IMG/VR virus record: IMGVR_UViG_3300045988_070370
Location: 3,495 to 67,494 of that record
Source of the DNA: a virus
Direction: 5' to 3' (one strand)
DNA: 64,000 nucleotides
A program made the position numbers and the translations under genes. Under the pieces are notes generated by a model, which was given only the letters and a program-made list of their open reading frames with translations, ran no database searches and was not told the DNA's origin. Shown here one piece after another: positions 13,946 to 39,073 of the stretch (positions within the stretch are counted from its first letter, which is position 1; every line of letters starts with the position of its first letter).

Positions 13946-13948
13946 GGC

Positions 13949-20198: not shown

Positions 20199-23100
20199 TT
20201 ATTTTTTCTTAGCATTCGCTTTCTGGTTAGCCACAACTACCTTGTTAGCCTTCTCCAGCACGGAAATAATCTTCTTTCTCAGTTCACGAATCTGTTTCAT
20301 GTCCTCAGCGTTGTAGGCATCCTTGCCATCATCCAGAAAACCTTTCTTCAACTCGGAAATCTCCTGCTTATCAAGGGAAATCTCATCAATGGCATCAATG
20401 GCAGCCTTGTTGGTGTTGTAGTAGCCATCACTCTGACTAGGAGCCGTATCAACCAAGAGGTCATAGGAAGTCTTGAATCCGTTCAGTTTGGTGTAGAGTT
20501 GTTTCAGCTTCAAGTCCTCGAAATCATCCTTTGGGGTAGCATGAGCCTTGTATATATCCTCGGCATTCAACTTGTGAGGTCTATACTCCTCCCCACTCTC
20601 CTCAGCACGTTCCTTCTTCTTGTCTTCCTCATACTTCTTCACCTTCACATCATCCTGCTTATACTGCTTATACTCCTCTGAGCCGTAGAACCGCTCCAGC
20701 ATAGAGTAATCTCCATCCACCTTAGCTTGTTTCTTCAACTTGCTCAGGGTATTGGCTGCACGGTCGTGGTTCTCCTTCATATCCCAGAACTCATCACCTT
20801 GTTTCTTTGTAACCGGTCTATCATCAGGATTGCTGACGAACTTGCTGAATAATGGAATATCAGCCACCTTGATTTCCTTCGGGTCGTTGAGTGACTTGGT
20901 AAGAACACCGAGCACCTGACTGCCCATGGTGTAAGCACCACCGAGATAAGAAGACAATACATGGTCAACCACAGCAGGGTTATTCAGATTGTATCTTGGG
21001 TCACCGAAAGCATCTATGCTATTCTGCTGCACATCAGGATAGTCGTTTCCGATTGAGTTAACCATCTTGGACGCACGAACCAACCAATCAGGAGTGCCCA
21101 CGTATGCCTTGGTAAAGTTAGGATCATACTTGTTGTACTCTGTGTCCTTGAATAATGGCTTGCCAGTGAAGTCAACATTGAAAGCCAACTCAAAGACTGG
21201 ACGAATAGCATTCGGCATCAGACTGACCGCAATATTGCCATCATATCCAGTAGGGTCGAGCGGAAGCATATCCACCACCTGACCGAGCAAGTCTTCACCA
21301 TACTGACTCCAACTCTCCTCAGCCAACTCGCCACCCATCATCTTGGATGCAATCATATCACCCAAGCCATAGAAAGCACGGAACTCCTGAGCAAGAGGAA
21401 TCTTCACAAACTCATGAGTAAACGGAACCCACATAATCAGGTTGTTTCGTCTATCCCACTTGGTGAACTGCCAGTACTTATCCTTATCATCATCACCACC
21501 CAACATACTCATCAAGGCAGCATTAACGATAGGAACCAGTACACCACTCGCCAACCATGATGCAGTAACAGCCGTAAACTTGAAAGGATGATGCTTGACA
21601 AGCGCACCCAAGGTCTGCAAACTCTGTACCGCTGGATTGATGAAGAGATAGAGGTTTCTAATCATCTGCCAGCCATATTCGCCAGTACCCTTGCGGTTGA
21701 AGTTCAGGGTCACGTCCTTGGCATCATTCACCGCCTCATCAATGGAACGTCCATACTGAATAGAGGTCATGTAAACCGCAAATCGGTTACTATCCTCGAT
21801 TGCTCTATTCAGGAACTCGATACCATCCATGATGGTGTGCCCTACCTTTACTGGGTTCGCCTTCCATCTATCCAAATCCTTCAAGTCGTTCTTGAATTTC
21901 TTCTTCAAGTCTTCCACGTCAAGCGAAGAGACAAAGCCAGTCTCGCCACCATTCATCATAAAGTCATAGAACATCTGTTCCTTTGGAGTAGCGTTTCCGT
22001 TGTTTACCTTCTCTCTCAACTTGCCGTTCTGATAGTCTCTCAGCATGAAACCGAGATTCCAAGAGGTAGCCAGATTCTTTCTTAGCATATAGTTGTATCT
22101 TCCATCCTCACGAATAGCGGTAGATGCAAGGGTCATGGTCAGGTCTCGGAAGTAGTTGGAAGGGATGAAGAGAGGTGAAAGACTGGTATAGGCAGCAGCC
22201 ATCTTTCTGCCCAACCAAGCAGCAGCCCTATCAAGTTTGCCGCTCTGAATCTCTCTTACTCGGTGTGCTCTAGTATTGTTCATCGCCTGAGCCAACTGAG
22301 GGTCACCATTCACATAGATAACGTACTCCTCGCCATCCTTCATCACTCTTACCTCATGTTCTCTCTCCTCGCTGTGAGTCTGAGGATAGGCTATGTTCAA
22401 TCCGTCTCTCTTCTGAGTAGCATCGCCAGTCTGAGCCATCTGCTCCATCTTCTTCTCGAAAGCATCAATGGCAGTCTTCACCTGATTACTATTCATCTGA
22501 GAAGTAATCTGAGGTGTAGCAGGAATCCACTCTTCGTTTCCGTTGGCATCCGTACTCTTCACGTACCAAGCCTTGCTCAGGGTCAGCAGGGAAGTTGGAT
22601 GATTCTGAGCCAAGAGCATCAGGTGTTGCTTCACCCAGTTCTTGTTGTTCAGCAGGATTCCACTCTCTGCCATATTCTCGATGTAGGCGATAGGGTCGTC
22701 AGCGATAGAGGTTCGTCCGTGTGCCGTTTTCAAGGTTTGATTGAACGCACCCTTGCCACCACCAATATAGTCCCATACTTGGTCGGCAGTAGTGCCATCC
22801 CAGCCACGGAGAGGAATATAATGGCTATACATATCTCGCACATACTGATAAGTATCTTTGCTCATCATGCCAGCCTTATAGCCATCACGGAGAATCTTCT
22901 TGGTAGCCGCATTCGTTGCGTCCCAGAGGTTGTGAGTCTCGGTTATATACTTACTCTCAATATCCTTTATCAGTTTGTGGGCAGCTTCCTCGAAGTCTGA
23001 GCCATCAAATAGAGCAGACAAGCCTGAGTAATCGTAGGCGATACCCATCTTATCATAACGATAGTTCATATAGGATGGAGAGTATTTCACTCTGAGTGCA

Positions 23101-26100
23101 TTATCTCTCTGTCTCCAAGTAGTGAAGTCTATGTAGCCAAGTTCAAAGCCGCTATCATTGCCCATTCGGTTCATGTCGCCCTTGTAAGCCCTGTATGCCG
23201 CACTTCTCTGAGCCACGTCCTCATAGTCAGCTTCCAGAGACTTCTTGAAAGCCATCTGAGCATCACGCTCCAAACCATGCTTAGCCATCATGTAGATACG
23301 GACATTGTCATAACTATCACCCAGCACCTTCTTCATCTGATGATAAGCCTTTCTCAATGGCTGCAAGAACTCATTGTTGTACTCCTCGAACTCGTTCTTA
23401 CCCTTGCCATGACTTCTGTTCTCGGCAGTATAGGCATCCTCAGCCATGTTCAGGCGGTCAACACCCACTTCCTTCATAATAGCTTCCTGAGCCTTGCGGA
23501 TAGCCAGCATACTATCTTGGAAGGCGATTCTTTTGAGCACAGAACCACGCTGCAACTCTCGGTTGAACTCTCCAAGGGCAGTATCATCACTCAGAAGATG
23601 CTGTTCGTAGGTTGGAGCAGTCTTCCACAGAGCCATCTGTTTGCGGTAGTCGTCCACTCTCCTCAGGAAGTCAACGGCACTCTCGCCAGCGTTGCGTTGT
23701 GGGATGGATGGTCGCTTGGCATCCTTAGGCAGATTATTATCCTTCTTCCACTGGTTCAGGTCGTGCTCAAACTGGTCATAGCGCAAGGAGAATCGGGTAT
23801 TACCAACGATATTGGCATTGTTCTCATCGAATATCACGTAGTTGTAATCGCCTTCCTTAGCACCGCCAAATATATTACCAGCCTTATACTTGATACCAGT
23901 GAAACCAATAGAAGACAGGAACTTACTAACTGCACGACTAGCATCTACATCTTTCCACTTTTTTGTTCTTCTTAAAGCATACATTAGAAAATCATAGGCA
24001 TTACCGCCAAATGAACCATCAAAAGAAAAACCACGCTTTTTAAAGTCGTCAAAATCTATTTTTAATCGCCTTAATTCTTTAATGATTGTATTCTTCTGTT
24101 TATCTGTCAAAGGAGCATCCCAATCAAGATAATCTCCATTATCATCAGGAATATCCACATCATAAAGATAAGCAATATTATCAGGAACAGCTATTTCCTC
24201 ATTCTTCTTTGCAAGAATATTGCTAAGTTCCTTTAAATCATCATCATCAGGGAACATTTCTAGAGCAGAAGGAAGGTCTTTTCTCATAGCATCCAATCCC
24301 TTGTTTACATCTTTATATTTATAGATATATTGTCTTACCATATCTTTGTTATTGGCAGACATATCTGTCACAAATTCAAAACCGCCATTATCTTTCCTTA
24401 TCTTGGCACGTCTTGTGTAGTCCTCAGCAATATCCTTAGAGTTAGTAACATAACCACCCCAGCCAAACGCTTGTGAACCTTCGCCTTCACCCATGTGGCT
24501 GAAATCGAACTTATCAAAGCTAGCCCCAGTACCATGATAGGTGCGGATGCTAAACTTAGGGTCAGAACCAGTAAGCAGTGGAGCAATCACATGCTCGGTC
24601 AACTGGGTAGGGATTCCGTTGCCGATGATGGTATGGCTCAGATTTTCAGAGAATGGCATCTTGTAATCATCGCTCACTCCTGATACTCTTGCGAGCACTC
24701 TGCCCATAGCACGATACACCTTGCCATCAGGCATAACAATCACATCACCACTCTTGGTTCGGAGCGTTGGCAGGAGTTCGTCAGCAAAGGCATGAGGAAT
24801 CTTGCCATCAGCATAAGCACTACCCATCACATACAATGGCTTGTCAATGTTTCTCCAGTCAATGCCATCAGCCTTCAAGCGAACGTCCATCCAAGGAGCC
24901 ACACCATTCTTCTTCTCGGTCAGTGTCGGGATAATATCAGCCACAGCTTCATACCATCCGCTCTTGTGTGCCATCTTCTTTGGCTTGTCAGGAAGTTTGC
25001 CATCACGAACCGCACGGACAATCAATCTCTCTCGGTTGGTGTAGCCGCCATAGTCAGCAGCATTATAGACATCAGCATCCCAAGTATAGCCATTGGCATC
25101 CAGCGCATCCGTGATAGTCTTCATCGCTTCTGAATCCTTATATCCCTTCACGTTTTCAATGGTCACAACCTTTGGCTTGATAGCATTGATGAACTCGGCA
25201 GTACTTGCAGCAGTCTCCTTGTCAAGTTCCAACTCAGCATGGTTACTCTTCGCCTGAGAGTAGTTCTTGCAGACTGGGCTGGCATGGAAGTACTCTACCT
25301 CGCCATCTATCTGTTTCACCAACTCCTTAGGGTCAACATCACGAACATCAGCAGTAACGATGTGCTGTCCGAAGTTGTTGCGATATACACCGCTTATCTT
25401 CTCATCATACTCCACTGCCACTACTGGGTCGATGATACCCTTCAAGCCTTCCTCAACAAGACCGCCACCGCTAAAGTATGTTCCAGCCTTAATGAGAGTG
25501 CCATCCTTCAGGGAGAACTTAGGCTCCTCGCCAGCAATCTCTGCCTTGCGGTTCTCGCCCAGAGCCTGAGCAATATGAATCATCTTCCTGTTAGCCATCT
25601 GCCAGCCGCTCGGCATATCATCAATGGCAGTCTTGATAGCATCATCCACCTCATCAGGAGTGTTCAGACTCTTCAAGTCCTCAGCCATATCAGCCGCCCC
25701 ACTCTCCTTTCCGTCAGCCATATCACGGAGAGAGAAGGACACATCGCCAACGCCCAAGAAAATCTGGTCTTTGCGAGCCACGTCCTCAGTAGATTCAGCG
25801 AGAGTTTTTCTTCTCTCCTCAGGAGTCATGTTAATTCGGGCAGACACATTACGAGCTTCCACCTCTCCAGCGAGTGACTTGTAACTGTTGTAATCATCAT
25901 TCGCCTGATAAGCATTATAAAGACCTCTGTTCTTCTCAACAATAGCCTTAGCCTCATCTTCCTTGCCTTCTGCACGCAACTGGCGAATCTGCTTAGTAAC
26001 CTCTGCTAATCTCTTCTTAATCTCACCTCTAACCAATCTAGGGCTACCTCCTCTATCAAAGCCCTCAATAGACTGGATTGCATGCTGAATCTCGTGATTC

Positions 26101-29100
26101 AATATACTATTCATATATTTCAGCTCGTCAGCATGGATGGTAATGGTGTTTGTCTTGGCATTATATTCACCATTTGAAGGCATATCGTTCATAATGGCAT
26201 CCGTTTCAATACGTACATCTTTCAACTGAGGATAAGCCTTAAATAATTCAGGTGCATCAATCACCTTAGATAGTTTGCCGCCATTCCAGAGCATATCCTC
26301 CTCATAACGCTTAACGATTTGTCCACCGCCTACGTCCATCGTGTCCTTTATCTTGGCATCAGGCATTTCGTATCTCCACTTGCCATCGGCACCACGCTCC
26401 CAGCCAGTAGCCATCTTGATAGCCTTGGCATCCTTCTTCTCCTCTTCCATCTTGCGAGCCACTGAAAGGAAATCCATACGAGCAGTACGCTCCTCTGCCT
26501 TGTCAGCAGCAGCCGCACCACGCTCACCAGCGAGAGAGAAACGAATATCATTGTTGTCGGCAGAGAAATCGCCATTGTTATTCTCGGCAGACTTGATTTG
26601 GTTGGCATTAAATGCTACATAAGAAGTCCCACCAAACTCCTCATCATCTATAACAACACCATCATATCCATCCCTTATCTGCTCTTCTCTAAAATTATTT
26701 CCCGCCTCAATTATTGGAGCAACATTTTCATAATCTTCCTCGTAAGAATTGAAATCTTCATCGCTTATATAATTATTCAGATAATCAGCAAGACCTTCCA
26801 AAGTGTAGCCATCGAATGGTTCTACTATATTTAGGAAACACGCCATAGGTTTACCCATATATTCAGGTTGTTTTTTATTTGATGTAAACCAATGACCGAT
26901 AGTTGTTGTTGCAGCATAACTCGCATTAGTGGCATTGCCAAATGTATTTTTGCCAACTTCTTTATCTTTCCCAAATATAGTAAAGCTCTCATCCGTATAA
27001 TGGTACATCACCATAGGCTCGCCATTCTCATCCACCACCTTGGAAGCATTCTCAGGGTCATTCTCCCAATCACCGAACCAGTTCTTGAAGTTGGCAGTAC
27101 GGACGGTTGCCCATTGTTCTGCATCCAGTTTGGTCTTCTCACCATTAGGAGCCGTCATATAGGTTCCGTTTGACTTGGCATCAGCCACAATCTTCTCCTT
27201 CTCTGCTTTCAGAGAGAATCGTATATTGTCACTACTATTGATAGCTTCATTGAAGGCACGACTGCGGTCACCTTCCTTATTCGGGTCGTAGTCATACATT
27301 GGTAAGCCAGCATCCTCAATGCCCTTGCGTACATCTTCGCCCAAGTTGTCAGGAACCACGGCAGCAGCAAACTCGTTTAGACGGAGAGGTCTGTTGTATT
27401 TAGTCTCAAAGTACGCACTCTTCAACTCAGTCTGTACTGCATTCTTCAAGGCATCCAGTTTCTTCATGAAGGTAGGAGTAAGGGTAATGCCATATTCTTT
27501 CTTGGCATACTTCTTAGGGTCAGACTGCAATACAATATCGTGAAGTCTCTGCTCACCATAGAACACATCATTATACAAGAACTTGGCAAGGTCATAATAA
27601 ACCTCACTCCATTTCTCGTAAAAAGCTTCCTTATCCTCATTAGAAGATAACTTATCCTTGTTGGCACGCATTTCGTCTGTAGAATCAACACGACTAGCCA
27701 ACTTTGCGATAAAGCTACCAAACGAGGTATATTCGCTTCCATTGGTCTGCCCATCTGCTTCTTCCCTCATAGCCTTTGAAACATTTTCAAGAGTCTCAGG
27801 CACATACTTTCGGGAACCATCCTTAGTATAGCCACGGAAGATACGGTTCTTCGTTCCGAACTCATCCAGTTTGTTCTCCTGCCATCTGATGTAATCATCA
27901 TAAAGACCATTCTTGTTGACGTAATTACTAGCCTTCACCTTAGACAGATAGAAGTCATACTTCTTGGTATCGTTATGCTCCTTCACAATATCCTCAACAA
28001 CCTTCTTCACATCTTTTTTTCTTGGACTTCCGTCCTTGTTAAGCAAGGTTGATTTATAGTCACGCTCAAAGATTTCCTTAGTCTGTTTTCTTACTTGTGG
28101 ATTGATAGGGCTAGCCTTAACGCCAGTCTCCTTATACATCTTTCTTCTTACCTCCAAAGAAACCTTTTCCCAAGTAGGATGGATGATGGCATGCTTAGCC
28201 AGACTTGTAACCTTTTCATTCAGTTCAGGGTCATTCTGCATACTGCTCAGAATATCCTCGGCAGTAGGATGGTCATTGATAATCTCTTTCCAGCGATAAT
28301 CAATTCTTGAATCATACGCTTTAATATCAATGCCCTTTTCTTTAAGATACATCAACTCCCAAGCAGGAACACCATTGTCTTCCATTACATCCTTGGTCTG
28401 TCTCTTAATCTCTGCCTTAGCAGCACTAGGGTATTCAAGGCTGTCAACCCAGTCTTCAAACTTCTGACTGCCCTTTTCGCTCATTTGCCGCTCTACGGAA
28501 GGATAACGCTGAGTATAGGCATCAGTTATCCAAGTACCAGCAGTCTTGCCAGTGCGCTTATCTACAAGGGCAGAAGGAGCAATAAAAGAAATCTCTCCAA
28601 AGTTGTCGTGACCACTCTTGTTGGTATCAATCACAGCCAAAGAAGGATTGGCAAAGCCACCCAGTTTCAAAGCCTTTCTCAGCTTCTCCTCTGTAATGTT
28701 ATGCACTCCTGCAAGAGTTTTTTCATCCTTCAATGAAAACTTTTCTCCATTTTCCTTGGCAGTTTCAGAAGAATTGTCTATCTTTGCAGCAGATAAGTCA
28801 TCCGTAAGGTTGGAAAGACCACCAACCTCTTCTGATTGTTCAGAAGGCAGTATGAGGACTTGGTCGCCCTCACGGATGGCTTGTTTCTTTATCAATCCCA
28901 AATTTTTATCATTCACAAAGTGCCAATGAACGATTTCCACATTGTCTTTATTAGGATTTACCTCTAATAATACTGTGCGGTTATTGCCCTTCTCGTCCTT
29001 CGTGTTGATAAGCACCCAATTATATGGTCTAGTTTTCTTTTGATTCTGACCATACAAATCAGGATTGTACAAAGCAGACTTAAAGATTACTTTACTCAAT

Positions 29101-32100
29101 TCAGGAGTAACGTCCTTATGTCTCATATAATTACGCTCAAAGATATTCTTCTTGATAACAACTGGCTTGCCTTCTGTTCCGATAGCATCAGCAATTTTCT
29201 TTGGTAAACTAGGCAATTCTACATTTCTGGTAGGATGCAAGAAGTCTTCATCCGTCAATTCATCAACGGACTTAATCTTATCCAGCTTCAAAGTACCATC
29301 CTGATTCAGAGGATTCCCCTGATTATCCTTCAACGAGAACTTTACCTTAGTATAGTCTTTAAATGGCTTTAGCTTACGTTTGCTTGTATCAAGCCACTTG
29401 TCGAACTCATCCTTACTTACTCCAGTAATATTTCCAAGACCTTTCCATCCCTTGCTATAGTTGGCGAGATAAGCCTTTTCTGCATCATCCATGGAGTCAT
29501 AGCCGTACATCACCTTATGCTCATCAAACGAGCCATCAGGATTCACTTGGTCAACGACAAACACATCACCATCCCAATTATCAAGGTCTGCCTTGTCGTT
29601 AATAAACATATCCAGATGGTCGCCATCCTTACCGAACTTACCACGGATATAGCCATAGGTATCGTGCATGGTTACTTTCCACTCTTTGCCATTAGCATCC
29701 TTGCCTGAGCGAGTCGAACCCTTTGGATTCTCTATAGTATAATCGTAGCCACCGAACTTGATGTGTCCCTTCTTGTAGTTGCCACTCTCTTTCTGTGCGT
29801 CAGACGGATTGGTTTCTGTTTCTTCAATAGCAGACTTCAAACGGAGAGAGAACTTGGTGTGATTAGTAATTTGAGCATTGTTCTCGTCAAAGATAACATA
29901 GTTCATCTTGCCTTCCTTGTTACCGCCAGTAGTGCGGTCTGCAATAACCTTAACTCCAACAATACCTTGCTTATTTAAAGCCAAAGATGCTAACTTATCG
30001 GAATGCAGGACTTTGGAAAGTTCGCTGTAAAGCCCATTACCTTTTTGTCTATTCCACAACTGCCAATACTGATACTTTCCATTCTCTGTCTTCTCAAAGT
30101 AATCGTAGTTCCCATCAGAATCATACATAGTATAGCCATCTTCCTCCATAACACGTCTCTTTGCTTCGAGCATTTTAGGAGTGATAGGCTCATCCCATCC
30201 GATGTAGTTATCACCAGTATCATCAGGAATATCAACAGAGTAAAGGTTTCGTGGTTTTCCTATGGAATCCAACTTCTTCTGCAAAGCGTCAATCTTAGTC
30301 TTTACATCTTTGATGTCACTTTCCTTAGTTTTTACATTCTGCTTATATTTTTCAACCTGTTCGCTATAATACATAACATCAGATTCGTACATGTCAACAC
30401 CAAGACCTGTGCCACTTTCCTTTGCCTTTGAAAGTTCTCCCTTAGCCTCATCAAGTCTTGATTGGTACAAATCTACATAGGATTTTGCATCTTTCAACTC
30501 ATCCTCCAATAAATCAAGACCAGACTTGGTATCTGCCAAATTCTGTGCGACAGTATCATAGTCTTCATTAATCTTAAAGTCAGAAGGATTCAAACCTTTC
30601 AAAACATTCAGCTCATCTTGAACTTGCTTGGCTTTCATCTTCGCAAACGGGGTGTCGTCAACGGATGCAAGTTTCTTCTCACCAGCATCTATCATCTGTG
30701 ATATAGCCTCTTTAGCGGAAATGTTAAACTTATCCATATTAAAGGCAACTTGATAGATAATTGATGGAGTTTTATACGTCATAGGTTTATCTTGATACAT
30801 CAGTCTTGAAGGTGCATTCTTCTTTGCATTCTGCTTAGCATAAGCCTTGGCAATACCTTCCACCTCGCTTACATAGGTTCCCCAGCCATAAGCCTGAGCA
30901 CCCTCACCACTACCCATGAAGGAGTGGTCGAACTTGTCAAACGATGCTTGGGAGCCGTGATAAGTCTTGATGGAGAACTTAGGAGCATCAGCTATCTCCT
31001 GATTAATGCTGTTCACAACATCATCAGTAACAATATCGCCCTCCTGAATCTGCTGAGGTTCACGACCAGCCTTGCTTACCAAGTCAGCTTGCTCTGCTCT
31101 GGTCAAGATACGGTTCACCTTCATCGCACCAGTAATCACCCAAGGGTCAGTCTCAGGGTTCGGATTGGTACGATACATATAATAGCCATCAGTAGGCAGA
31201 TGTTTCAGACCAGCCAATGAATGCTGATACTTACCAGATGGATTGATACCCTCTTGGCGAGCTTCCTCCTGATAATCAACATCAGCAGCATATTCCACCT
31301 CAGCGAAGACGAAGTTCTTAGGAAAAAGAGTCTTGTTTCCCTCAGCATCCTTGCGGTTGAACTGGATAGCGTAAGGCACTACACCAAGATGCCAGCCTGG
31401 TCTATAGGCTAGCTTACCGCTACCGCCTTGTGTTCCCTTGCCGCCCTGCTTAACCTGAGGTCTGCCAGTCTTGCTTTCTCCTGCTATAGGAGCCGCATCG
31501 GCATCGAGCCATACACCAACTGGAGTAGCAGCACCATCAGGGTTCGCTACCATTGGTGGATAGAGTTTGCCATCCTTTAGCACGAACACCTTGTAGCCGA
31601 CACCCTTCTTCTTAGGTTCAGGCTTTTGACGGAGAGAGAACGAAACATCTTCGCCAGTCTCAGAGTTTGTCACCTCACCTTTGGCAGTCTTCACGTAGGC
31701 TTGTTCGATAGAGCGGATGATGTTCTTGGTCACATCGCTATACTCAGTACCAAAGAATGCCAACTTAATCTTCTGCAATATCTCATGGATAGCAGCGAGC
31801 AGAGGATGAGACATCTTCATAGCGAGAGTATGAGCCAAGTTGAGGTCACGAATCATTTCACCTACCGCATCAGCAACAACCTCCTCAGCATAGTAATCTC
31901 TAGCACGTCCAGAGAATCCAGCATCGGAATATCTCAGCATGGTCTCATCTACCGCCTTGTCGAAGGCATCAGAGCCATAGGTATCAAGCACAAGCTGAGT
32001 CAACTCATTGTATGCAGCAGGGTTCAGGCTCTTGATTTGGTGAGTCATTTCGTGACCGAAGATGAACTGGGCACCTTCCGTGATGGAAGAGTCTAGAGTG

Positions 32101-35100
32101 ATGAAGATTGTACGATGAACGTTGCCATCAGCATCCTTGGTCTCCTGAATCCAGCCGTTGCCCAACTTGTCGGAGTACTGCCACTGAATGTTGGCACCCA
32201 TCATCTTAGCCAGTCTCTCGAAAGCCTTGCGAGTTTTCTGCCCCACGATGTTGTCAACGACCTTCATATCATCCACCTTATTCTTCTCTACGTCGGCTGC
32301 ACGCTCGGCAGTTGTCTGCTGCTTGCCATTCTCCTTAGCAGAGAAAGGAAGGTCAGATTCATCAAGTTGTTCACCCAAAGGCTTCTCATCCGTTGCATCC
32401 TCGGGAGCCTCAATAGCATTGCTACCCTCTCTTAGTGTGTCAGGGAACTTTGTCTGCTCATTTACAAAATCTCTAAACTCTTTAGCGGTAGCAGCATCAT
32501 AGAACGTTGCACCTTCTGTGATTTCGCTATCTATATTAGAAGAATGATTGAGGTCACGTCCTGCATTGAACTCCTCTTGCAGTTTTCCGAGTTGCTCAAC
32601 GACTTCCGCATTGTCTGGGAAATAAATCACTTGGTTTATATTCTTGCCCTCATCAGGAACAAGAGTACTAACACCAAAGCCATCTTTGCACATCAAGAAC
32701 AAATCAGCGTAGCTATTTAACTTAGATGTAGGGTCTATCTCTAAGCCTTGCTTCTTTGCCCATTTTGCAAGTTCTATAATATTGTTATTAATAGGTTCTC
32801 CTTGTTTATCAATAGCTGGTAAATCTATATTCTCCTCAGCCTTTTTCTTTTCCTCTTCTGCTTTCTTCTCCAGTTCAGCCTTTTTCTTTTCTTCCTCCTC
32901 CTTAGCTTTCTGTTGCTCGTAATATGCAGCATTCTCAGCAGCAGTCCTTTCTTCTTCAATGAGTTTTTCTGCCTGAGCGATACGAATATTCTCAATAAAA
33001 CTTCTTGCTTCCGAAGCCTTGAAACCGCTTGTGAGCACATCAATAAGAGCATTACGAATATCTTGTGTATCGAGAGATTCAAGGTTGGATGGACGATTAT
33101 CCCACAGACTATGTACGAGTGCATCTATAGTCGTTCCTTTGCCATCAGCAGCGAGCAACTGGGTCTTGGCAAAGTCTTCTCTGCTCAATCCAGTCTCTTG
33201 CTTAACACCCTTGCTTGTTTCTGTTCCCTCATAGTTGAGAGAGTGAGCACCGAGGTTGCTAGCCACATACTCCTCAGCAGTAAGCGGAATGGTATCTGTC
33301 ACATCAATGCCTGTACCATCATACAGACGATGCAGCAGAGTTCCAACCGTCTCCTTATAGATTTGAGCAACAGCCTCTGCATCATCCTTCACCGCACTCT
33401 TCAAGCGAGCAAACTTTCTTCTTGCCTTCTCAATAAGATTCTTTCTGCCCTCAGCAGTATCTTCCACCTTGGCAAGTTGTCGCTCATTATAGGCATCACG
33501 GATAGCGATAGCAGAGTCATAAGCCGCCTGAGCATCAGCAATAGCCTTCTCCTTAGCATCCTTGGAAGCCTTCTGTTCTAAGAAAGTCTTACCCTTCACG
33601 GTCATGTTGTTAGCCTTGTCGAGTGCCTTCTTTGCATCAGACACATATCCAGATACGATACTATCTGCATCCTCACCAAACTGATTATCATATAGCTCAG
33701 CAGTCTGTGCGGCAGTCAGCTTCGAGAAGTCAGGATTGCCATCCTCCAGCATAGGTACGATGGTTCCATCTTCAAGGGTAATGGTAGGAGCAGCAGGAGT
33801 CTGTTCTGTTGCAGGAGTCTCAGTAGTCTCATCAGAAGGAGCAGTAGTCTCTGTATTCTCTGCTACCTCAGGAGTTGTTTCATCCTCTATTGTAGGAGAT
33901 TCCACCTCTATCTCACCTCTATTCTCTCCACTATTATCCTCTATCATTGAGGAGGCAGCAAATGCTTGCTTATACTCATCGAGCGACATAGAAGAGATTG
34001 TAGCCACATCTTCTTTGTTCACAGCATGAGGAACAATAGTACCATCACTCTTCAACTCAACTACCTTAGCCTTAGCACCAGTATCACGAATAAGGAACAA
34101 CTTGGAGTCAGGGTATTTAGTGTTACCATCCTCATCAAGTACATCAACGAGCACCACGTTTCCATTATCATTAAGTATTTGATTGAAATCAAATGAAGGT
34201 TGAGTCTCTTCTGTCTCCTGAGTCTGTTGGTCTGCACGTTCCTTCTCCAACTGCTCACGCTGAGCCTTAGCAGCTTCCAGTCTCTTCTGGTCTTCCAAGT
34301 CTTTCATCTGCTGCAAGTCTGCAAGCGAATAAGGATTCTCCACCACGTTACCATCTATAGAGACAGCAGCAGTACCATCACCATAATCAGCCAACACCTC
34401 ATAGGTATGTTCAATACCATCAGTATCAGTCACATTGAACTGAGAGCCAACCTCTACAGTTCCGTCAATGATGCCAGCAATCTCTTTGATAGCATTCTCT
34501 TTTGCATCAGCTACCGCCTGAGCCTTCACATCATCAGCAGGAAGTTCTTCACCCAGTTCAGCAAACATCAACGCATCAGCATGTTCTACACTATTCGTTG
34601 TCGGGTCGTAGTAGAGAATCATATCATCACTATTGCTTACATCAATAGAACCATCTTCATGAGTAGCAATATTACCGCTGATAATATACACACCATAATC
34701 TTCCAAACCGCCTGATGCTTTGATGGTAGCGTTACGAACGGAGCCACGACTTCGGTCTGTGTACATATCCACTTTCTGTGCCGCCTGATGAGCAGCTATA
34801 TCAACCTTGTCTTGTGCATCATCAATCACACCTTGGTATCGGGCAGAAGACAACTGATAATCATAGATAGCTTGGTCAAGTTTATCATCCTGTCCTGTCA
34901 GGGATTCCAGTTCCTCATCACTCATGGCAGATAGCTGCTGCTCAGAGATGCCAAATGCTGCTGCAAGAGTCTTCATCTGGTCTTCCTGCTGAATCTGAAT
35001 ATCATGCTTGTCTGCATCATCTGCATTATGACCTTCCGTATAAGCATCATCAAGGTCGTTTGATAATGTTGGAGCAGTATCACCTTCTTCAACCTTATCT

Positions 35101-37253
35101 TTTGTCTTTGCATCTGATGCCTGATTGAATCCACGAAGTTTGCTAAGGAACATAGCATAATTGATAACTGCACCTTTTTGCTTAGCAGTCATGGAGTCTG
35201 AGCGAGTAGCATCCAAGACAGTCTTAGTCAAGTCTGCATTGGTTGACACATCAATTTTGCTTTTTATTTCGTCCCAATTATCATTAAACAACCATTGACC
35301 GAACTTGTCTGCTTTGTTGACCTGATGCTTAATCTTGAAATATTGAACTGCATTTATAGCGCCAACAGCAGTTCGAGGAGCCTGCATGAAACCAACAGAA
35401 TAGAACATTCCAAGGCAAGTATCAATCTGCTTTTCTCTCGCATCAGGATTTGTGAAAACATTGAAGTCACTCCAGCTTCCGTCTCCATCACCCCATGCAG
35501 CATGAAGGGCAGTACCAAATTCCTCTTCGGAAATCTCAGCCATCACACCTTGTATTCCAGACTTGTTGGTTGCATTGCTCAACCATTTATAGTAAGCATT
35601 ATTGCCTATCTTTTCAAAGAAGGAAGATACTTTTGAAAGACCCAACTTAGACAACAACTTAGACGCACCAGGCAGATACTCACCGAACATTTCCGAGAAG
35701 TTCTCTATTGTAGCTGAGCCAAAGCCATCCTTGATAGCCTTACCAAGACTGACACCTTCATTGAACTTCAAATCGCCATTCTTGTCTTGGGTCACACCTC
35801 CATTCTCGTTGTTCATTCCAACATAACGTTCTATCACATTATTATATGTAGAACCAAGTTGGTTGGTAGCTGCCAATGCTGCACTACCAGTCATATCACC
35901 GAGCATACGACCAGTATTTTTAGTAAACCATTTGCCAAGAGCACCGAGAGCCATTTTCTCTCCAACCTTTTCTCCTGTCTTGGTGAAACCAGTGGTCATA
36001 ACATTTCTCCAGCCGCTTAACGCAAAGTCTCCCATGAACTTTAAGGAGCGACCGCTCACATCTCCATACTGATAAGCCTTTGTGCCATACTGCTGCTGTT
36101 TAGCAGCTTCTCCTTGTTGCTGCTGAATAGCACCAAGCATAGCTTGTGCTGCATTTCCTGCATTGGAACCTTTCTTGATTGTTCCATCTTCCATGCCCTT
36201 CTTTACTTGGAGCAAATTGTTTGATATAGCTGCATCCATAACACCCTGAGAATATAACTTCGGGTCAAGCATGGTATTAAACATCGCACCAAAATAATTG
36301 GAAACGTCATTCCACTTATCTTTCCACCAACCAGCATTTTCATTTCTCTGCTTTTGTTCCTTCAACTCCTGAAGCAGAGTTGTACGCAACATCTGATTGT
36401 AAGCCTTGGCGGTATTATAAGCACCATACTCTACATCAGACAAGCGGTTTGCCTCATTGCTTATAGCTGTATTAAATGAAGAAGGAGCAACTGCTCCACC
36501 AGATGCAACAAAAGGAGAACCCTGCAAGTGCATAGACTCATTCAATTCCTTAGAACGTCTGTCCTGATTCTCGTTAAGCCACTCTTGTCTTCTCTCCATT
36601 TGTCGCATAGCAACATCTGTGTCGGACAAATCTGGGTCAGCCTTATCCAATTCAGAAGGAACAATGCCCATATCAACTGCATTGTTCCACTCTTCCCCAT
36701 ATTTATCCAACTGGTTCTGATACTGGGAAGCATCATACTCGTTGTCGAACTCTACACCATCTGTTGTAGTATAGGTTCCAGTCTTGCCTGTTGTCGAATT
36801 GTAGTTGAACTCATTCTTCTGTACATTCTTATTCTGTAAAGGATTCTTGAAACCGATAGTCACCTTACCACCATTTGCATTAAACTTCTTTGCTCGCTCA
36901 ACCGTCTTACGGATATTGCCAGATGCACGCTTAACTTGTCTAGCAGTATTCAGGACAGATTGTGTCACAGACAAGTAACGAGCACGGTCAGCAGCACTCA
37001 TAGGTACACTACCACCCTTCGCCCTTGATGATGTCCTACTACGAGGTACAAAGAGTGCAGAATAGAAACGCTCATAAGTAGATGGAACATCAAAGTTCTG
37101 AGCCTTCAAGTTCTCATAAATAGCGTGTCTGTTATCTGCACCGCTCTTTCCGTCTCTGGTCAGGGCACTTTCAAACTTATTGTAATCATCAGGCACATCA
37201 TAGTTCTGTGCTTTCAGATTCTTGTATAAAGTGTATAATGGTCTTTCTGCCAT
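20199..37253 (-). CDS. Giant polyvalent virion/ejection protein (5,684 aa) with multiple embedded enzyme modules
   Basis: One uninterrupted 17,055-nt ORF, co-oriented and tightly spaced with two ejection-like protein genes. Modules read from motifs are listed as separate features below. Confidence 0.85.
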   Translation of the reverse strand: MAERPLYTLYKNLKAQNYDVPDDYNKFESALTRDGKSGADNRHAIYENLKAQNFDVPSTYERFYSALFVPRSRTSSRAKGGSVPMSAADRARYLSVTQSVLNTARQVKRASGNIRKTVERAKKFNANGGKVTIGFKNPLQNKNVQKNEFNYNSTTGKTGTYTTTDGVEFDNEYDASQYQNQLDKYGEEWNNAVDMGIVPSELDKADPDLSDTDVAMRQMERRQEWLNENQDRRSKELNESMHLQGSPFVASGGAVAPSSFNTAISNEANRLSDVEYGAYNTAKAYNQMLRTTLLQELKEQKQRNENAGWWKDKWNDVSNYFGAMFNTMLDPKLYSQGVMDAAISNNLLQVKKGMEDGTIKKGSNAGNAAQAMLGAIQQQQGEAAKQQQYGTKAYQYGDVSGRSLKFMGDFALSGWRNVMTTGFTKTGEKVGEKMALGALGKWFTKNTGRMLGDMTGSAALAATNQLGSTYNNVIERYVGMNNENGGVTQDKNGDLKFNEGVSLGKAIKDGFGSATIENFSEMFGEYLPGASKLLSKLGLSKVSSFFEKIGNNAYYKWLSNATNKSGIQGVMAEISEEEFGTALHAAWGDGDGSWSDFNVFTNPDAREKQIDTCLGMFYSVGFMQAPRTAVGAINAVQYFKIKHQVNKADKFGQWLFNDNWDEIKSKIDVSTNADLTKTVLDATRSDSMTAKQKGAVINYAMFLSKLRGFNQASDAKTKDKVEEGDTAPTLSNDLDDAYTEGHNADDADKHDIQIQQEDQMKTLAAAFGISEQQLSAMSDEELESLTGQDDKLDQAIYDYQLSSARYQGVIDDAQDKVDIAAHQAAQKVDMYTDRSRGSVRNATIKASGGLEDYGVYIISGNIATHEDGSIDVSNSDDMILYYDPTTNSVEHADALMFAELGEELPADDVKAQAVADAKENAIKEIAGIIDGTVEVGSQFNVTDTDGIEHTYEVLADYGDGTAAVSIDGNVVENPYSLADLQQMKDLEDQKRLEAAKAQREQLEKERADQQTQETEETQPSFDFNQILNDNGNVVLVDVLDEDGNTKYPDSKLFLIRDTGAKAKVVELKSDGTIVPHAVNKEDVATISSMSLDEYKQAFAASSMIEDNSGENRGEIEVESPTIEDETTPEVAENTETTAPSDETTETPATEQTPAAPTITLEDGTIVPMLEDGNPDFSKLTAAQTAELYDNQFGEDADSIVSGYVSDAKKALDKANNMTVKGKTFLEQKASKDAKEKAIADAQAAYDSAIAIRDAYNERQLAKVEDTAEGRKNLIEKARRKFARLKSAVKDDAEAVAQIYKETVGTLLHRLYDGTGIDVTDTIPLTAEEYVASNLGAHSLNYEGTETSKGVKQETGLSREDFAKTQLLAADGKGTTIDALVHSLWDNRPSNLESLDTQDIRNALIDVLTSGFKASEARSFIENIRIAQAEKLIEEERTAAENAAYYEQQKAKEEEEKKKAELEKKAEEEKKKAEENIDLPAIDKQGEPINNNIIELAKWAKKQGLEIDPTSKLNSYADLFLMCKDGFGVSTLVPDEGKNINQVIYFPDNAEVVEQLGKLQEEFNAGRDLNHSSNIDSEITEGATFYDAATAKEFRDFVNEQTKFPDTLREGSNAIEAPEDATDEKPLGEQLDESDLPFSAKENGKQQTTAERAADVEKNKVDDMKVVDNIVGQKTRKAFERLAKMMGANIQWQYSDKLGNGWIQETKDADGNVHRTIFITLDSSITEGAQFIFGHEMTHQIKSLNPAAYNELTQLVLDTYGSDAFDKAVDETMLRYSDAGFSGRARDYYAEEVVADAVGEMIRDLNLAHTLAMKMSHPLLAAIHEILQKIKLAFFGTEYSDVTKNIIRSIEQAYVKTAKGEVTNSETGEDVSFSLRQKPEPKKKGVGYKVFVLKDGKLYPPMVANPDGAATPVGVWLDADAAPIAGESKTGRPQVKQGGKGTQGGSGKLAYRPGWHLGVVPYAIQFNRKDAEGNKTLFPKNFVFAEVEYAADVDYQEEARQEGINPSGKYQHSLAGLKHLPTDGYYMYRTNPNPETDPWVITGAMKVNRILTRAEQADLVSKAGREPQQIQEGDIVTDDVVNSINQEIADAPKFSIKTYHGSQASFDKFDHSFMGSGEGAQAYGWGTYVSEVEGIAKAYAKQNAKKNAPSRLMYQDKPMTYKTPSIIYQVAFNMDKFNISAKEAISQMIDAGEKKLASVDDTPFAKMKAKQVQDELNVLKGLNPSDFKINEDYDTVAQNLADTKSGLDLLEDELKDAKSYVDLYQSRLDEAKGELSKAKESGTGLGVDMYESDVMYYSEQVEKYKQNVKTKESDIKDVKTKIDALQKKLDSIGKPRNLYSVDIPDDTGDNYIGWDEPITPKMLEAKRRVMEEDGYTMYDSDGNYDYFEKTENGKYQYWQLWNRQKGNGLYSELSKVLHSDKLASLALNKQGIVGVKVIADRTTGGNKEGKMNYVIFDENNAQITNHTKFSLRLKSAIEETETNPSDAQKESGNYKKGHIKFGGYDYTIENPKGSTRSGKDANGKEWKVTMHDTYGYIRGKFGKDGDHLDMFINDKADLDNWDGDVFVVDQVNPDGSFDEHKVMYGYDSMDDAEKAYLANYSKGWKGLGNITGVSKDEFDKWLDTSKRKLKPFKDYTKVKFSLKDNQGNPLNQDGTLKLDKIKSVDELTDEDFLHPTRNVELPSLPKKIADAIGTEGKPVVIKKNIFERNYMRHKDVTPELSKVIFKSALYNPDLYGQNQKKTRPYNWVLINTKDEKGNNRTVLLEVNPNKDNVEIVHWHFVNDKNLGLIKKQAIREGDQVLILPSEQSEEVGGLSNLTDDLSAAKIDNSSETAKENGEKFSLKDEKTLAGVHNITEEKLRKALKLGGFANPSLAVIDTNKSGHDNFGEISFIAPSALVDKRTGKTAGTWITDAYTQRYPSVERQMSEKGSQKFEDWVDSLEYPSAAKAEIKRQTKDVMEDNGVPAWELMYLKEKGIDIKAYDSRIDYRWKEIINDHPTAEDILSSMQNDPELNEKVTSLAKHAIIHPTWEKVSLEVRRKMYKETGVKASPINPQVRKQTKEIFERDYKSTLLNKDGSPRKKDVKKVVEDIVKEHNDTKKYDFYLSKVKASNYVNKNGLYDDYIRWQENKLDEFGTKNRIFRGYTKDGSRKYVPETLENVSKAMREEADGQTNGSEYTSFGSFIAKLASRVDSTDEMRANKDKLSSNEDKEAFYEKWSEVYYDLAKFLYNDVFYGEQRLHDIVLQSDPKKYAKKEYGITLTPTFMKKLDALKNAVQTELKSAYFETKYNRPLRLNEFAAAVVPDNLGEDVRKGIEDAGLPMYDYDPNKEGDRSRAFNEAINSSDNIRFSLKAEKEKIVADAKSNGTYMTAPNGEKTKLDAEQWATVRTANFKNWFGDWENDPENASKVVDENGEPMVMYHYTDESFTIFGKDKEVGKNTFGNATNASYAATTTIGHWFTSNKKQPEYMGKPMACFLNIVEPFDGYTLEGLADYLNNYISDEDFNSYEEDYENVAPIIEAGNNFREEQIRDGYDGVVIDDEEFGGTSYVAFNANQIKSAENNNGDFSADNNDIRFSLAGERGAAAADKAEERTARMDFLSVARKMEEEKKDAKAIKMATGWERGADGKWRYEMPDAKIKDTMDVGGGQIVKRYEEDMLWNGGKLSKVIDAPELFKAYPQLKDVRIETDAIMNDMPSNGEYNAKTNTITIHADELKYMNSILNHEIQHAIQSIEGFDRGGSPRLVRGEIKKRLAEVTKQIRQLRAEGKEDEAKAIVEKNRGLYNAYQANDDYNSYKSLAGEVEARNVSARINMTPEERRKTLAESTEDVARKDQIFLGVGDVSFSLRDMADGKESGAADMAEDLKSLNTPDEVDDAIKTAIDDMPSGWQMANRKMIHIAQALGENRKAEIAGEEPKFSLKDGTLIKAGTYFSGGGLVEEGLKGIIDPVVAVEYDEKISGVYRNNFGQHIVTADVRDVDPKELVKQIDGEVEYFHASPVCKNYSQAKSNHAELELDKETAASTAEFINAIKPKVVTIENVKGYKDSEAMKTITDALDANGYTWDADVYNAADYGGYTNRERLIVRAVRDGKLPDKPKKMAHKSGWYEAVADIIPTLTEKKNGVAPWMDVRLKADGIDWRNIDKPLYVMGSAYADGKIPHAFADELLPTLRTKSGDVIVMPDGKVYRAMGRVLARVSGVSDDYKMPFSENLSHTIIGNGIPTQLTEHVIAPLLTGSDPKFSIRTYHGTGASFDKFDFSHMGEGEGSQAFGWGGYVTNSKDIAEDYTRRAKIRKDNGGFEFVTDMSANNKDMVRQYIYKYKDVNKGLDAMRKDLPSALEMFPDDDDLKELSNILAKKNEEIAVPDNIAYLYDVDIPDDNGDYLDWDAPLTDKQKNTIIKELRRLKIDFDDFKKRGFSFDGSFGGNAYDFLMYALRRTKKWKDVDASRAVSKFLSSIGFTGIKYKAGNIFGGAKEGDYNYVIFDENNANIVGNTRFSLRYDQFEHDLNQWKKDNNLPKDAKRPSIPQRNAGESAVDFLRRVDDYRKQMALWKTAPTYEQHLLSDDTALGEFNRELQRGSVLKRIAFQDSMLAIRKAQEAIMKEVGVDRLNMAEDAYTAENRSHGKGKNEFEEYNNEFLQPLRKAYHQMKKVLGDSYDNVRIYMMAKHGLERDAQMAFKKSLEADYEDVAQRSAAYRAYKGDMNRMGNDSGFELGYIDFTTWRQRDNALRVKYSPSYMNYRYDKMGIAYDYSGLSALFDGSDFEEAAHKLIKDIESKYITETHNLWDATNAATKKILRDGYKAGMMSKDTYQYVRDMYSHYIPLRGWDGTTADQVWDYIGGGKGAFNQTLKTAHGRTSIADDPIAYIENMAESGILLNNKNWVKQHLMLLAQNHPTSLLTLSKAWYVKSTDANGNEEWIPATPQITSQMNSNQVKTAIDAFEKKMEQMAQTGDATQKRDGLNIAYPQTHSEEREHEVRVMKDGEEYVIYVNGDPQLAQAMNNTRAHRVREIQSGKLDRAAAWLGRKMAAAYTSLSPLFIPSNYFRDLTMTLASTAIREDGRYNYMLRKNLATSWNLGFMLRDYQNGKLREKVNNGNATPKEQMFYDFMMNGGETGFVSSLDVEDLKKKFKNDLKDLDRWKANPVKVGHTIMDGIEFLNRAIEDSNRFAVYMTSIQYGRSIDEAVNDAKDVTLNFNRKGTGEYGWQMIRNLYLFINPAVQSLQTLGALVKHHPFKFTAVTASWLASGVLVPIVNAALMSMLGGDDDKDKYWQFTKWDRRNNLIMWVPFTHEFVKIPLAQEFRAFYGLGDMIASKMMGGELAEESWSQYGEDLLGQVVDMLPLDPTGYDGNIAVSLMPNAIRPVFELAFNVDFTGKPLFKDTEYNKYDPNFTKAYVGTPDWLVRASKMVNSIGNDYPDVQQNSIDAFGDPRYNLNNPAVVDHVLSSYLGGAYTMGSQVLGVLTKSLNDPKEIKVADIPLFSKFVSNPDDRPVTKKQGDEFWDMKENHDRAANTLSKLKKQAKVDGDYSMLERFYGSEEYKQYKQDDVKVKKYEEDKKKERAEESGEEYRPHKLNAEDIYKAHATPKDDFEDLKLKQLYTKLNGFKTSYDLLVDTAPSQSDGYYNTNKAAIDAIDEISLDKQEISELKKGFLDDGKDAYNAEDMKQIRELRKKIISVLEKANKVVVANQKANAKKK
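23796..24542 (-). other. YHGT module copy 2, aa about 4238-4486
   Basis: KFSIRTYHGTGASFDKFDFSHMGEGEGSQAFGWGGY ... GDYNYVIFDENNANI. Confidence 0.35.
24558..25505 (-). other. Complete C5 cytosine DNA methyltransferase module, aa about 3917-4232
   Basis: Motif I is YFSGGGLVEEG (25461-25475). Motif IV is HASPVCKNYS. Motif VI is IENVKGY. Motif VIII is YTNRERLIV. Motif X is IGNGIPTQL. Confidence 0.8.
25740..26528 (-). other. Zincin module 2 (HEIQH at 26082-26096), aa about 3572-3838
   Basis: TGWERGADGKWRYEMPD...ITIHADELKYMNSILNHEIQHAIQSIEGF. Confidence 0.55.
26544..27206 (-). other. YHYT module (divergent third copy of the YH[GY][ST] module), aa about 3346-3570
   Basis: VMYHYTDESFTIFGKDK...GYDGVVIDDEEFGGTSYVAFNANQI. 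The start and end architecture matches the two YHG[ST] modules. Confidence 0.3.
29343..29840 (-). other. Inorganic-pyrophosphatase-like module, aa about 2470-2637
   Basis: GNYKKGHIKFGGYDYTIENPKGSTRSG...TYGYIRGKFGKDGDHLDMFI...VFVVDQ...FDEHKVMYGY parallels the NYGYI...DGDPVDV core of family I PPases. Confidence 0.45.
29856..30980 (-). other. YHGS module copy 1 (possible H-Y-E-type ADP-ribosyltransferase-like), aa about 2092-2466
   Basis: It starts KFSIKTYHGSQASFDKFDHSFMGSGEGAQAYGWGTY and ends GKMNYVIFDENNAQI. It contains a coiled-coil insert. Confidence 0.35.
32040..32054 (-). other. Zincin motif 1 (HEMTH) in the giant protein, about aa 1734
   Basis: The reverse complement reads FIFGHEMTHQ. 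Confidence 0.6.
37053..37238 (-). repeat. Tandem protein repeat LYxNLKAQNxDVPxxYxxFxSAL (2 copies) at the giant-protein N-terminus
   Basis: PLYTLYKNLKAQNYDVPDDYNKFESAL and HAIYENLKAQNFDVPSTYERFYSAL. Confidence 0.7.
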
Positions 37254-38413: not shown

Positions 38414-39073
38414 CTATGCATTAATCTTCTTTGGCGCATTATCGCCAACCATATCATTCAATTCACTCGCTACCTGCTGCTGGGAAGGAGCCGCACCAAC
38501 CTTGGCATCCAACTTAGCCATGTCTGAATCAGTAGGCGATGTCACGTCAGGACGCTTAGGAGTCTTGCTACTACCACCACTATCAAGCGTAGCAGCGATG
38601 TTGGCAGCAGTACCAGCCACACCAGCTGCAACGTTAGCAGTATCAGCAGACTTCTCGGCTTCCATCTGCATCTGTTGCCCCTGAATAGAACGCTTATTCT
38701 GCTGATACTGCTGCTCGATAGCATCCTTACGAGATTCGTTTGCAGCTACAATCTGAGAGGTCGTATCAGCAAGAGTCTTGTTGTTCGCCTCCTTCACCGC
38801 AGTAGTAGAATCTTCCGTACCGCCCATTACGGCTTGTCTGCCCTTAGCTGCTCTGTTTCTGTTCTTAATCTGCTCCTGCATCTGAGTGAGCAACCTGACT
38901 GTATCGGCACGTTTGGTAGGGTCTTCGTTATACTTTCTATCATACCATGCCTGATTATCTCTCTGCTGCTGGGCAAGCATCTGCTCCTGCTTTTTTCTCG
39001 CCTTGCGGTTAGCTATACCGCCAGCGATACTGCTTGCAAGCCCAAGCCCAGCACCTATTAATGTACCAATCAT
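38414..39073 (-). CDS. Internal virion / pilot-like protein with N-terminal glycine-zipper helix
   Basis: 219 aa. MIGTLIGAGLGLASSIAGGIANRK is followed by a Q-rich coiled coil. It is the first gene after the 39105-39112 promoter box. Confidence 0.5.
   Translation of the reverse strand: MIGTLIGAGLGLASSIAGGIANRKARKKQEQMLAQQQRDNQAWYDRKYNEDPTKRADTVRLLTQMQEQIKNRNRAAKGRQAVMGGTEDSTTAVKEANNKTLADTTSQIVAANESRKDAIEQQYQQNKRSIQGQQMQMEAEKSADTANVAAGVAGTAANIAATLDSGGSSKTPKRPDVTSPTDSDMAKLDAKVGAAPSQQQVASELNDMVGDNAPKKINA

Follow-up and report, generated by a model that had tools for sequence, protein, structure and literature searches.

A five-residue motif, [KRS]FS[LI][KRA], recurs eleven times in a giant protein encoded on a 64,000-nucleotide stretch of viral DNA (positions 3,495 to 67,494 of IMG/VR record IMGVR_UViG_3300045988_070370; hereafter the window, whose numbering is used throughout). 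The protein is the product of a single open reading frame (ORF) of 5,684 amino acids (aa) on the minus strand (20199-37253), with a mass of ~630 kDa. Its central ~2,600 residues form a string of about ten cassettes lying between motif copies. Comparison with related proteins showed that the units which related phages gain, lose, or exchange are bounded by the motif, with breakpoints falling within its 15 nucleotides (nt).

A recurrent motif in a giant polyvalent protein

The giant ORF encodes a polyvalent protein in the sense of Iyer, Burroughs, Anand, de Souza, and Aravind (Iyer et al., 2017; PMC5512222), that is, several unrelated effector domains in one phage-encoded chain, as its set of Pfam domains matches the vocabulary of that study. 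All eleven motif copies lie on the minus strand. The first, SFSLR (aa 1871; 31629-31643), forms the junction straight after a module containing the sequence HEMTH and is kept in essentially all homologs as '...tgedv SFSLR qkpepkkk'. KFSIK (aa 2092; 30966-30980) precedes an ART-like module, here called module 0 (weak Pfam match, aa 2096-2209), KFSLR (aa 2467; 29841-29855) the InPase module (aa 2485-2621, E=2.3e-51), KFSLK (aa 2638; 29328-29342) the LPD13 module (aa 2651-2792, E=4.8e-48), and a further KFSLK (aa 2838; 28728-28742) the PBECR5 module (aa 2843-2940, E=5e-19). These are followed by RFSLK (aa 3345; 27207-27221) before the ART-PolyVal module (aa 3408-3563, E=5.2e-20) and RFSLA (aa 3571; 26529-26543) before a module that joins LPD23 (aa 3582-3635, E=8e-11) to a HEIQH sequence. 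After the eighth copy, SFSLR (aa 3839; 25725-25739), KFSLK (aa 3912; 25506-25520) introduces the C5 DNA methyltransferase (MTase) module (DNA_methylase, aa 3927-4223, E=2.1e-29), and KFSIR (aa 4233; 24543-24557), in which Ser is encoded by AGC, introduces a second ART-like module 0 (weak Pfam match, aa 4238-4290). The last junction is RFSLR (aa 4487; 23781-23795), beyond which lies the C-terminal block.

These residues and positions (aa 1871-4491) were identical on re-translation to those given in an earlier note on this DNA, made from the sequence alone, and its range of copy spacings, 73-507 aa, was likewise correct. The note had further stated that the motif is absent from the ~3,060 flanking residues except for a looser PFSAK. 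This holds, because the eleven copies account for every FS[LIVM] tripeptide of the giant protein; PFSAK itself (aa 1636-1640; 32334-32348, minus strand) is a degenerate sequence just ahead of the HEMTH module and is not kept as a canonical motif in other homolog variants. The composition of the protein predicts 0.057 occurrences of the full motif and 1.36 of FS[LI], giving a Poisson probability of 4e-22 for at least 11 copies, and 2,000 shuffles of the protein, the permutation check that the note had proposed, produced a maximum of 2. FSL is also the top over-represented tripeptide of the protein (9 observed vs 0.79 expected). Because two pairs of copies flank paralogous modules (aa 2092-2466 and 4233-4486; 62% and 35% identity), the number of independent motif contexts is nearer nine, for which P is ~2e-17. 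As the note had also claimed, the copies sit at module boundaries: none of the 11 falls inside a Pfam domain envelope, and eight lie 0-18 residues upstream of the next domain match.

Cassette exchange at the motif

Homologs of the giant ORF, 2,200-5,900 aa in length, were found on more than 100 contigs, and homologs are annotated as Caudoviricetes metagenome-assembled genomes or as Prevotella. Each of 120 homologs carries 4-11 motif copies, and nearly all of their FS[LIVM] tripeptides occur in motif context. When 121 related proteins were split at the motif and the resulting segments clustered, 78 clusters, 86 internal architectures, and 157 junction types were obtained. A single upstream tail (e.g., ...sinqeiadap) joins at least 10 different downstream modules, and a single downstream head (e.g., dektlagvhni...) follows a dozen different tails. 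The order of the cassettes is largely collinear among homologs, so that variation takes the form of presence, absence, or replacement.

Similarity switches at the motif in both protein and DNA. Where two junctions have the same upstream but different downstream modules, identity drops from 0.72 at position -1 to 0.25 at position +1. Junctions with neither neighbour in common are alike at the five motif positions only (0.45, 1.0, 1.0, 0.80, and 0.43), their flanks being ~0.1 identical. Between the window and a related 65-kb contig, DNA identity falls from 98% to 22%, or rises from 27% to 96%, across the 15-nt motif. The second of the two functions that the earlier note had offered for the motif, a conserved junction used in modular recombination, is thus directly supported. 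Effector-repertoire reshuffling in mobile elements of gut Prevotella and Bacteroides is thereby documented to nucleotide resolution, and splitting at the motif provides a practical parsing rule that separates single effector cassettes, including those without family assignment.

Three kinds of irregularity were observed within the arrays. Several proteins, among them P0019 and P0040, contain scar segments of 18-43 aa between two motif copies (segment clusters 29, 34, and 66), in which the first ~10 residues of module 0 are fused to its last ~5-25, or the same is seen with modules 1 and 0; KFSLK-vyhgsgadfteht-KFSLR is one example, and one 18-aa scar consists of the head and tail of module 0. 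The scars look like internal deletions tolerated within the array and, rare as they are, imply that deletions occur outside the motif too. Short inter-motif segments form another group. The one in the window (25521-25724; aa 3844-3911) measures 73 aa and its relatives 32 aa (segment cluster 10); such segments always precede the MTase module, share a similar '...ihia.a.......p KFSLK' tail, and resemble a domain less than they do a spacer or propeptide. Finally, a variant of the HEMTH module in P0021, P0036, and P0040 carries an extra canonical KFSLR 74 aa past HEMTH, which corresponds in position to TLAMK of the window (31815-31829; aa 1809-1813); here, within a module, the motif seems either to have originated or to have degenerated in situ. 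No orphan cassettes were evident among the window ORFs, although no systematic search was made.

Selection on the peptide and its structural setting

Across the eleven copies, Phe is encoded by TTC or TTT, Ser by TCT, TCC, TCG, TCA, or AGC, and Leu/Ile by CTC, CTG, TTG, or ATC. Such synonymous variation shows that selection acts on the motif peptide and not on a nucleotide string. The 13-mer GTTCTCTCTCCGT, which the earlier note had placed in three copies, is common to two only (29841 and 31629), while the string common to three is the 12-mer TTCTCTCTCCGT.

The ten residues upstream of the motif have a hydrophobic fraction of 0.18-0.23, compared with 0.29 overall, and are enriched in polar residues. 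In an AlphaFold2 (AF2) model of the LPD23/HEIQH module and its flanks, RFSLA and SFSLR (aa 3839) lie in stretches with a predicted local distance difference test (pLDDT) score below 50, the core scoring 70-82; in a model of the HEMTH module, the adjoining SFSLR (copy 1) is also of low confidence, near or below 50. The motif stretches are therefore probably flexible at the three modelled copies and, taken with the polar upstream stretch, the motif appears to behave as a short linear motif in a linker.

Junction variants in wider lineages

The FSL form is confined to a Prevotella-phage lineage whose members share at least ~58% identity in the C-terminal block. Near relatives mix the F form with [KR]-Y-S-L-[KR] (e.g., RYSLK), one more distant relative uses RFSK, and [IV]-R-F-R-[DES] is the form in other distant relatives, among them Bacteroides phage BF1-TP2, which has been isolated. 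Bacteroidales conjugative polyvalent proteins carry [IV]-R-[FY]-R-x, and a Pseudomonas mendocina plasmid protein (pPME5) reads ...pdi RFSFA before LPD23 and ...tdi RFKLT. When enriched tripeptides were sought de novo in 130 distant giant relatives, YSL, RYS, FSK, FRD, FRE, and RFR were recovered; in many lineages of this set, the same procedure returned no junction-like motif.

The variants RYSLK, RFSK, and [IV]RFR[DE] shift together within one protein. In BF1-TP2 gp68 (L001:8578-19479; ~400 kDa), all four [IVL][RK]F tripeptides are junctions, and the same holds for each R[FY]R tripeptide of the conjugative proteins. The upstream tails of the conjugative proteins match those of the window (...nndi, ...iplsqrf..ddv, and ...vif..itahe), and copy 7 (RFSLA) is homologous to IRFRF/IRYRF of conjugative proteins and to RFSFA of the Pseudomonas plasmid protein. 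Free-standing ART modules start MENNYT..EEQ..GTY (N-terminal 'MENNYTIEE') where fused ones read RFRIE|DNYTQEE, and Met1 of the free-standing conjugative homolog P0270 aligns to position -1 of RFSLK (aa 3345). The FSL motif is thus shown to be a lineage-specific variant of an older junction, [KR]-[FY]-[SR]-x, which conjugative polyvalent proteins of Bacteroidales and Pseudomonas carry as well. A junction common to phage-ejected and conjugation-delivered proteins suggests a common deployment step.

Candidate protease modules

The earlier note had also proposed that one of two embedded zincins might cut the protein at the motif. Two HExxH sequences are indeed present, at aa 1734 and 3720; a zincin fold was confirmed for neither, Foldseek matches being not significant. 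The first lies in a zincin-like module (aa 1673-1864; 31662-32237, minus strand) with HEMTH at 32040-32054. In 109 of 112 HEMTH-carrying homologs, the next motif copy, normally the first of the protein, follows HEMTH at a distance of 137-138 aa (74 aa in one variant); proteins without HEMTH are truncated at the N-terminus. A hidden Markov model of the module matches only lineages with [KR][FY]S[LI] junctions. Its AF2 model (mean pLDDT 64) consists of a sheet followed by the HExxH helix, and sequence searches of the module against PDB, PHROGs, and NCBIfam returned nothing useful.

The second HExxH lies in module 7 (25740-26543, minus strand), which comprises LPD23 and a zincin-like region with HEIQH at 26082-26096. 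This module is optional, occurring in about half of the phage homologs, and also weakly matches DUF6782 (Pfam, E=0.012). Its AF2 model has a mean pLDDT of 55, although conjugative homologs had been added to deepen the alignment, and its flanks are disordered. In conjugative and Pseudomonas proteins, LPD23-HEIQH is found 150-180 aa after a junction (in pPME5, ~178 aa past RFSFA).

Overall, 127 of 130 giant relatives contain HExxH or HExx[GA]H, and the type of zincin-like module varies with the motif variant, GHEMTH accompanying F/Y-S-L and HE[VI]VGH accompanying RFR[DE]. The RFR[DE] lineages carry a HE[VI]VGH[KH]GL module instead (BF1-TP2 gp68, aa 2345; P0249, P0253, and P0148; L005, ~aa 707). 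This sequence, to which no family was assigned, is of the HExxGH type and resembles the zinc motif of M49 peptidases.

Elsewhere in the window, a 396-aa ORF (44432-45622, minus strand) encodes a retropepsin-like domain (gag-asp_proteas, E=2e-15) with a weak TPR match (E=8e-4, below the Pfam cut-off) and sits beside the integrase in a stretch of 35-37% GC. As a conserved processing partner it was rejected: tblastn gave no match in 50,697 phage records, and in the stretch read of L004, a related 65-kb contig, the 3 kb next to the integrase do not contain the ORF either. No prohead-protease gene was identified in the window.

Proposed explanation and its alternatives

The explanation that we favour, to which we give a little less than an even chance, is that of a cassette-string polyvalent protein in which the motif at each boundary is read by a factor, likely a protease, and also offers microhomology for exchange. 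Judging by position and homology, the giant protein is probably carried in the capsid and then ejected into the host. The weakly T7 gp14-like gene upstream may place the giant gene in an ejection-protein cluster, and gp47 of phi24B, a homologous LPD38 giant protein, was detected as a virion component by proteomics, with a proposed role in ejection (phi24B preprint); the preprint does not state if gp47 migrates as one intact band. In this explanation, the central region consists of about ten autonomous effector cassettes. The motif peptide would be kept because it is read by a cis- or trans-acting factor, most likely a protease, the prime candidate being the HEMTH module just upstream of the first copy and the second the LPD23-associated HEIQH module. 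Cleavage, whether in the capsid or once the protein has been ejected, would split the chain into an N-terminal piece, about ten separate effectors, and a C-terminal piece of 1,198 aa. The in-frame 9-15 nt that recur at each boundary would double as microhomology, so that cassettes could be exchanged without breaking the reading frame. Processing by an embedded zincin-like module is plausible because the HEMTH module sits 137 aa before the first motif copy, and the P1 proteins DdrB and DarA are processed (as cited in PMC5512222).

A bolder version extends to Bacteroidota phage and conjugative-element proteins with the junction forms FSL, YSL, FSK, FRE/FRD, and [FY]RF. These would be true polyproteins, in which, following packaging or delivery, an embedded zincin-like module of the HEMTH or the LPD23-HEIQH type cuts each [KR]-[FY]-[SR]-x junction to free up to a dozen independent anti-host effectors. 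Its specificity would co-evolve with the junction sequence by lineage, and the sites would double as in-frame exchange points, driving rapid diversification of the effector repertoire. We regard this as possible, if on the whole doubtful.

Several points weigh against proteolysis in either form. No Foldseek comparison of the HEMTH module with PDB gave an E-value below 0.3, so that the zincin fold is not confirmed; that of LPD23-HEIQH gave only non-significant local matches of 45-58 residues (E 1.4-2.8) to the minigluzincins selecase, jannalysin, and abylysin. The Pfam family MPTase-PolyVal (PF18818) is unmatched in the giant protein, where only HExxH motifs are seen, and the co-variation of protease type with motif variant is confounded by shared ancestry. 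Inside modules, FS[LI] occurs 0 times vs 7.2 expected (32,886 non-redundant module residues), but the control tripeptides FT[LI], LS[LI], and FA[LI] are depleted equally, so that specific avoidance of the site cannot be claimed. If every copy were cut, the products would include peptides as short as 32-73 aa (segment clusters 10 and 6). The InPase homologs of Rhizobium phages PBC5 and RHph_TM29 contain no such motif, and the giant protein of Stx phage VT2-Sakai has no enriched junction motif. Moreover, N4 vRNAP, ArdC, and TraC1 are giant delivered proteins without processing (as cited in PMC5512222).

An alternative is a short linear motif that is not cleaved, serving in an intact chain as a docking strand or threading hinge. 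Envisaged docking partners are a packaging or ejection chaperone, a gp14/gp15-like internal core, the portal channel, type IV secretion system (T4SS) coupling machinery, and nucleic acid; as a hinge, the motif would let neighbouring modules unfold and refold independently when threaded through a narrow channel. Peptide-level selection and a linker location suit this possibility as well as they suit cleavage, the alternating basic-aromatic-small-aliphatic-basic pattern suits a beta-strand, and the motif is common to phage-ejected and conjugation-delivered proteins, both of which cross a narrow channel. A number of giant delivered proteins are known not to be cleaved (PMC5512222), and the 32-73 aa inter-motif segments resemble spacers more than released products. 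We nevertheless consider a non-cleaved motif unlikely, though deserving of serious weight: no partner has been identified, the three modelled copies are given low confidence by AF2 and are not packed on a domain, and both the place of the first copy right after a conserved HExxH module and the start of a free-standing homolog precisely at the motif are left unexplained. A purely DNA-level signal, in which the 9-15 nt are a microhomology or recombinase target and the peptide is functionless, is improbable. It would account for breakpoints between related genes inside the 15-nt motif, for the tendency of residue M1 to go with the upstream and M5 with the downstream module, and for some over-use of TTC TCT CTC, TTCTCTCTC being common to 4 of the 11 copies. 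However, synonymous sites vary freely, the 12- to 13-mers are common to 2-3 copies only, and F/Y and S/R substitutions keep chemistry, not sequence. Because codons vary and the peptide is kept across phyla despite other codon usage and GC content, the motif does not appear to be merely a DNA recombination signal; 9 nt is also far under the requirement for homologous recombination, and the rare internal-deletion scars point to recombination elsewhere too, filtered by selection. Least probable by far is that the motif represents the edge of one repeated domain or an effect of composition or chance. Two of the 11 flank pairs are paralogous (module 0 twice), the '...nndi RF' tail of ART-PolyVal modules is old, and the Pfam models of PBECR5 and ART-PolyVal reach within a few residues of the motif. 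The data contradict it: at least nine flank contexts in the window are unrelated, 148 family junction types share the five motif residues only, the folds that follow the motif are unrelated to one another (pyrophosphatase, BECR nuclease, C5 MTase, and ART), and shuffling never gave more than 2 copies.

Gene setting and other features of the window

The source of the window is a podovirus-like temperate Prevotella (pro)phage. Its phage genes include a P22-like portal, an SU10-type major capsid protein, and Rha/Ant genes, and it also codes for a tyrosine integrase with a Bacteroidota-type arm-binding domain. On either side of the cassette string, the giant protein consists of conserved blocks. 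The N-terminal block (aa 1-1870; 31644-37253, minus strand) contains no motif copy and gave no confident match in family searches except for the HExxH module. The C-terminal block of 1,198 aa (aa 4492-5684; 20202-23780, minus strand) contains LPD38 (Pfam, aa 5258-5468; 20850-21482, minus strand; E=2.5e-22) and is the backbone common to other podophage giant proteins. It matches 5,582 representative clusters (clustered at 50% identity; E<=1e-3), with homologs in Bacteroides phages BF1-TP2 and BS-TP4, 933W-type Stx phages, and Bcep22-like, Ralstonia, and Vibrio phages.

The second gene upstream of the giant ORF (38414-39073, minus strand) is weakly T7 gp14-like; its product matches Pfam T7_gp14 with E=1.1e-5 and 25.8 bits, under the 27-bit cut-off. 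In a check for ejection proteins, the 394-aa neighbour product and the terminal blocks of the giant protein gave no family match. The related contig L004 keeps the gene order of a 219-aa product, a ~370-aa product, and the giant gene.

Several other features of the window were recorded. Besides the embedded MTase module, a separate free-standing C5 cytosine DNA methyltransferase gene is present at 53562-54344 (plus strand; Pfam, E=3.7e-53). Two large ORFs of 691 and 476 aa without family match (11325-15379, plus strand) lie in a block with a GC content of 0.34-0.35, oppose the flanking minus-strand structural genes, and carry the only non-motif FS[LI] tripeptides found outside the giant gene. 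A tRNA-like gene detected by ARAGORN at 48378-48455 (plus strand) has a four-base anticodon (cccc) without assignable amino acid and may be a frameshift-suppressor-type or degenerate tRNA. The product of 59420-60460 (plus strand) joins DUF7666 (E=1e-33) with collagen triple-helix repeats, and a 182-aa ORF at 415-963 (minus strand) matches glycoside hydrolase family 19 (chitinase class I/endolysin-like) exactly at the Pfam cut-off.

Comparison with known systems

Few proteins of phages and conjugative elements are as large and as poorly understood as polyvalent proteins, and the question of how unrelated enzymes joined in a 600-kDa chain are put to use has stood since these proteins were defined in 2017. 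Release of domains by a zincin-like peptidase and cassette-like recombination were both already proposed for them (Iyer et al., 2017; PMC5512222). The remark of the earlier note that it knew of no description of either idea for such proteins therefore has to be qualified. As for the junction motif itself, no description was found in the text of Iyer et al. (2017), which mentions no inter-domain consensus motif, or in the other literature searched. Thus, the idea of processing is not new, but the motif is the first concrete candidate for cut sites in polyvalent proteins, and a defined junction peptide makes the proposal of zincin autoprocessing simple to test. The giant protein resembles the proteins of that study in combining ART-PolyVal, InPase, LPD13, LPD23, LPD38, PBECR5, and a DNA methylase in one chain and in its mobile-element setting. 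It differs from them in the five-residue motif found at each exchange unit, with lineage variants traceable into conjugative proteins.

A second point of reference is the set of LPD38 giant virion proteins, which comprises phi24B gp47, the 'DarB-like' Bcep22 gp75 and JC1 gp69, and BF1-TP2 gp68. The C-terminal block is 31% identical to that of BF1-TP2 gp68 and 24-26% identical to those of Stx and Burkholderia phages, and here, too, the gene lies among structural genes. Unlike the protein of the window, BF1-TP2 gp68 uses [IV]RFR[ES], whereas VT2-Sakai is without an enriched junction motif.

Phage maturation proteases cut packaged head proteins at many sites, T4 gp21 at the consensus L/I-x-E and phiKZ gp175 at S/A/G-x-E. 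As in those systems and in viral polyproteins, a short consensus recurs in proteins that are bound for the capsid, and cleavage would turn one chain into many products. In contrast to the maturation proteases, the candidate enzyme is embedded in its substrate, the consensus is basic-aromatic-Ser/Arg, and cleavage is here a prediction.

In polymorphic toxins, the constant region meets a variable toxin cassette at a short junction, VENN in CdiA and PxxxxDPxGL at the end of the Rhs core, which coincides with recombination breakpoints and in Rhs proteins is also a self-cleavage site. The likeness lies in a short conserved peptide that marks the cassette joint and is the breakpoint, although the toxin motifs and the FSL motif share no sequence similarity. 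A polymorphic toxin has one junction, a variable C-terminal tip, and a cognate immunity gene per protein; the giant proteins described here have no immunity genes, and they carry internal cassettes with up to 13 junctions in series.

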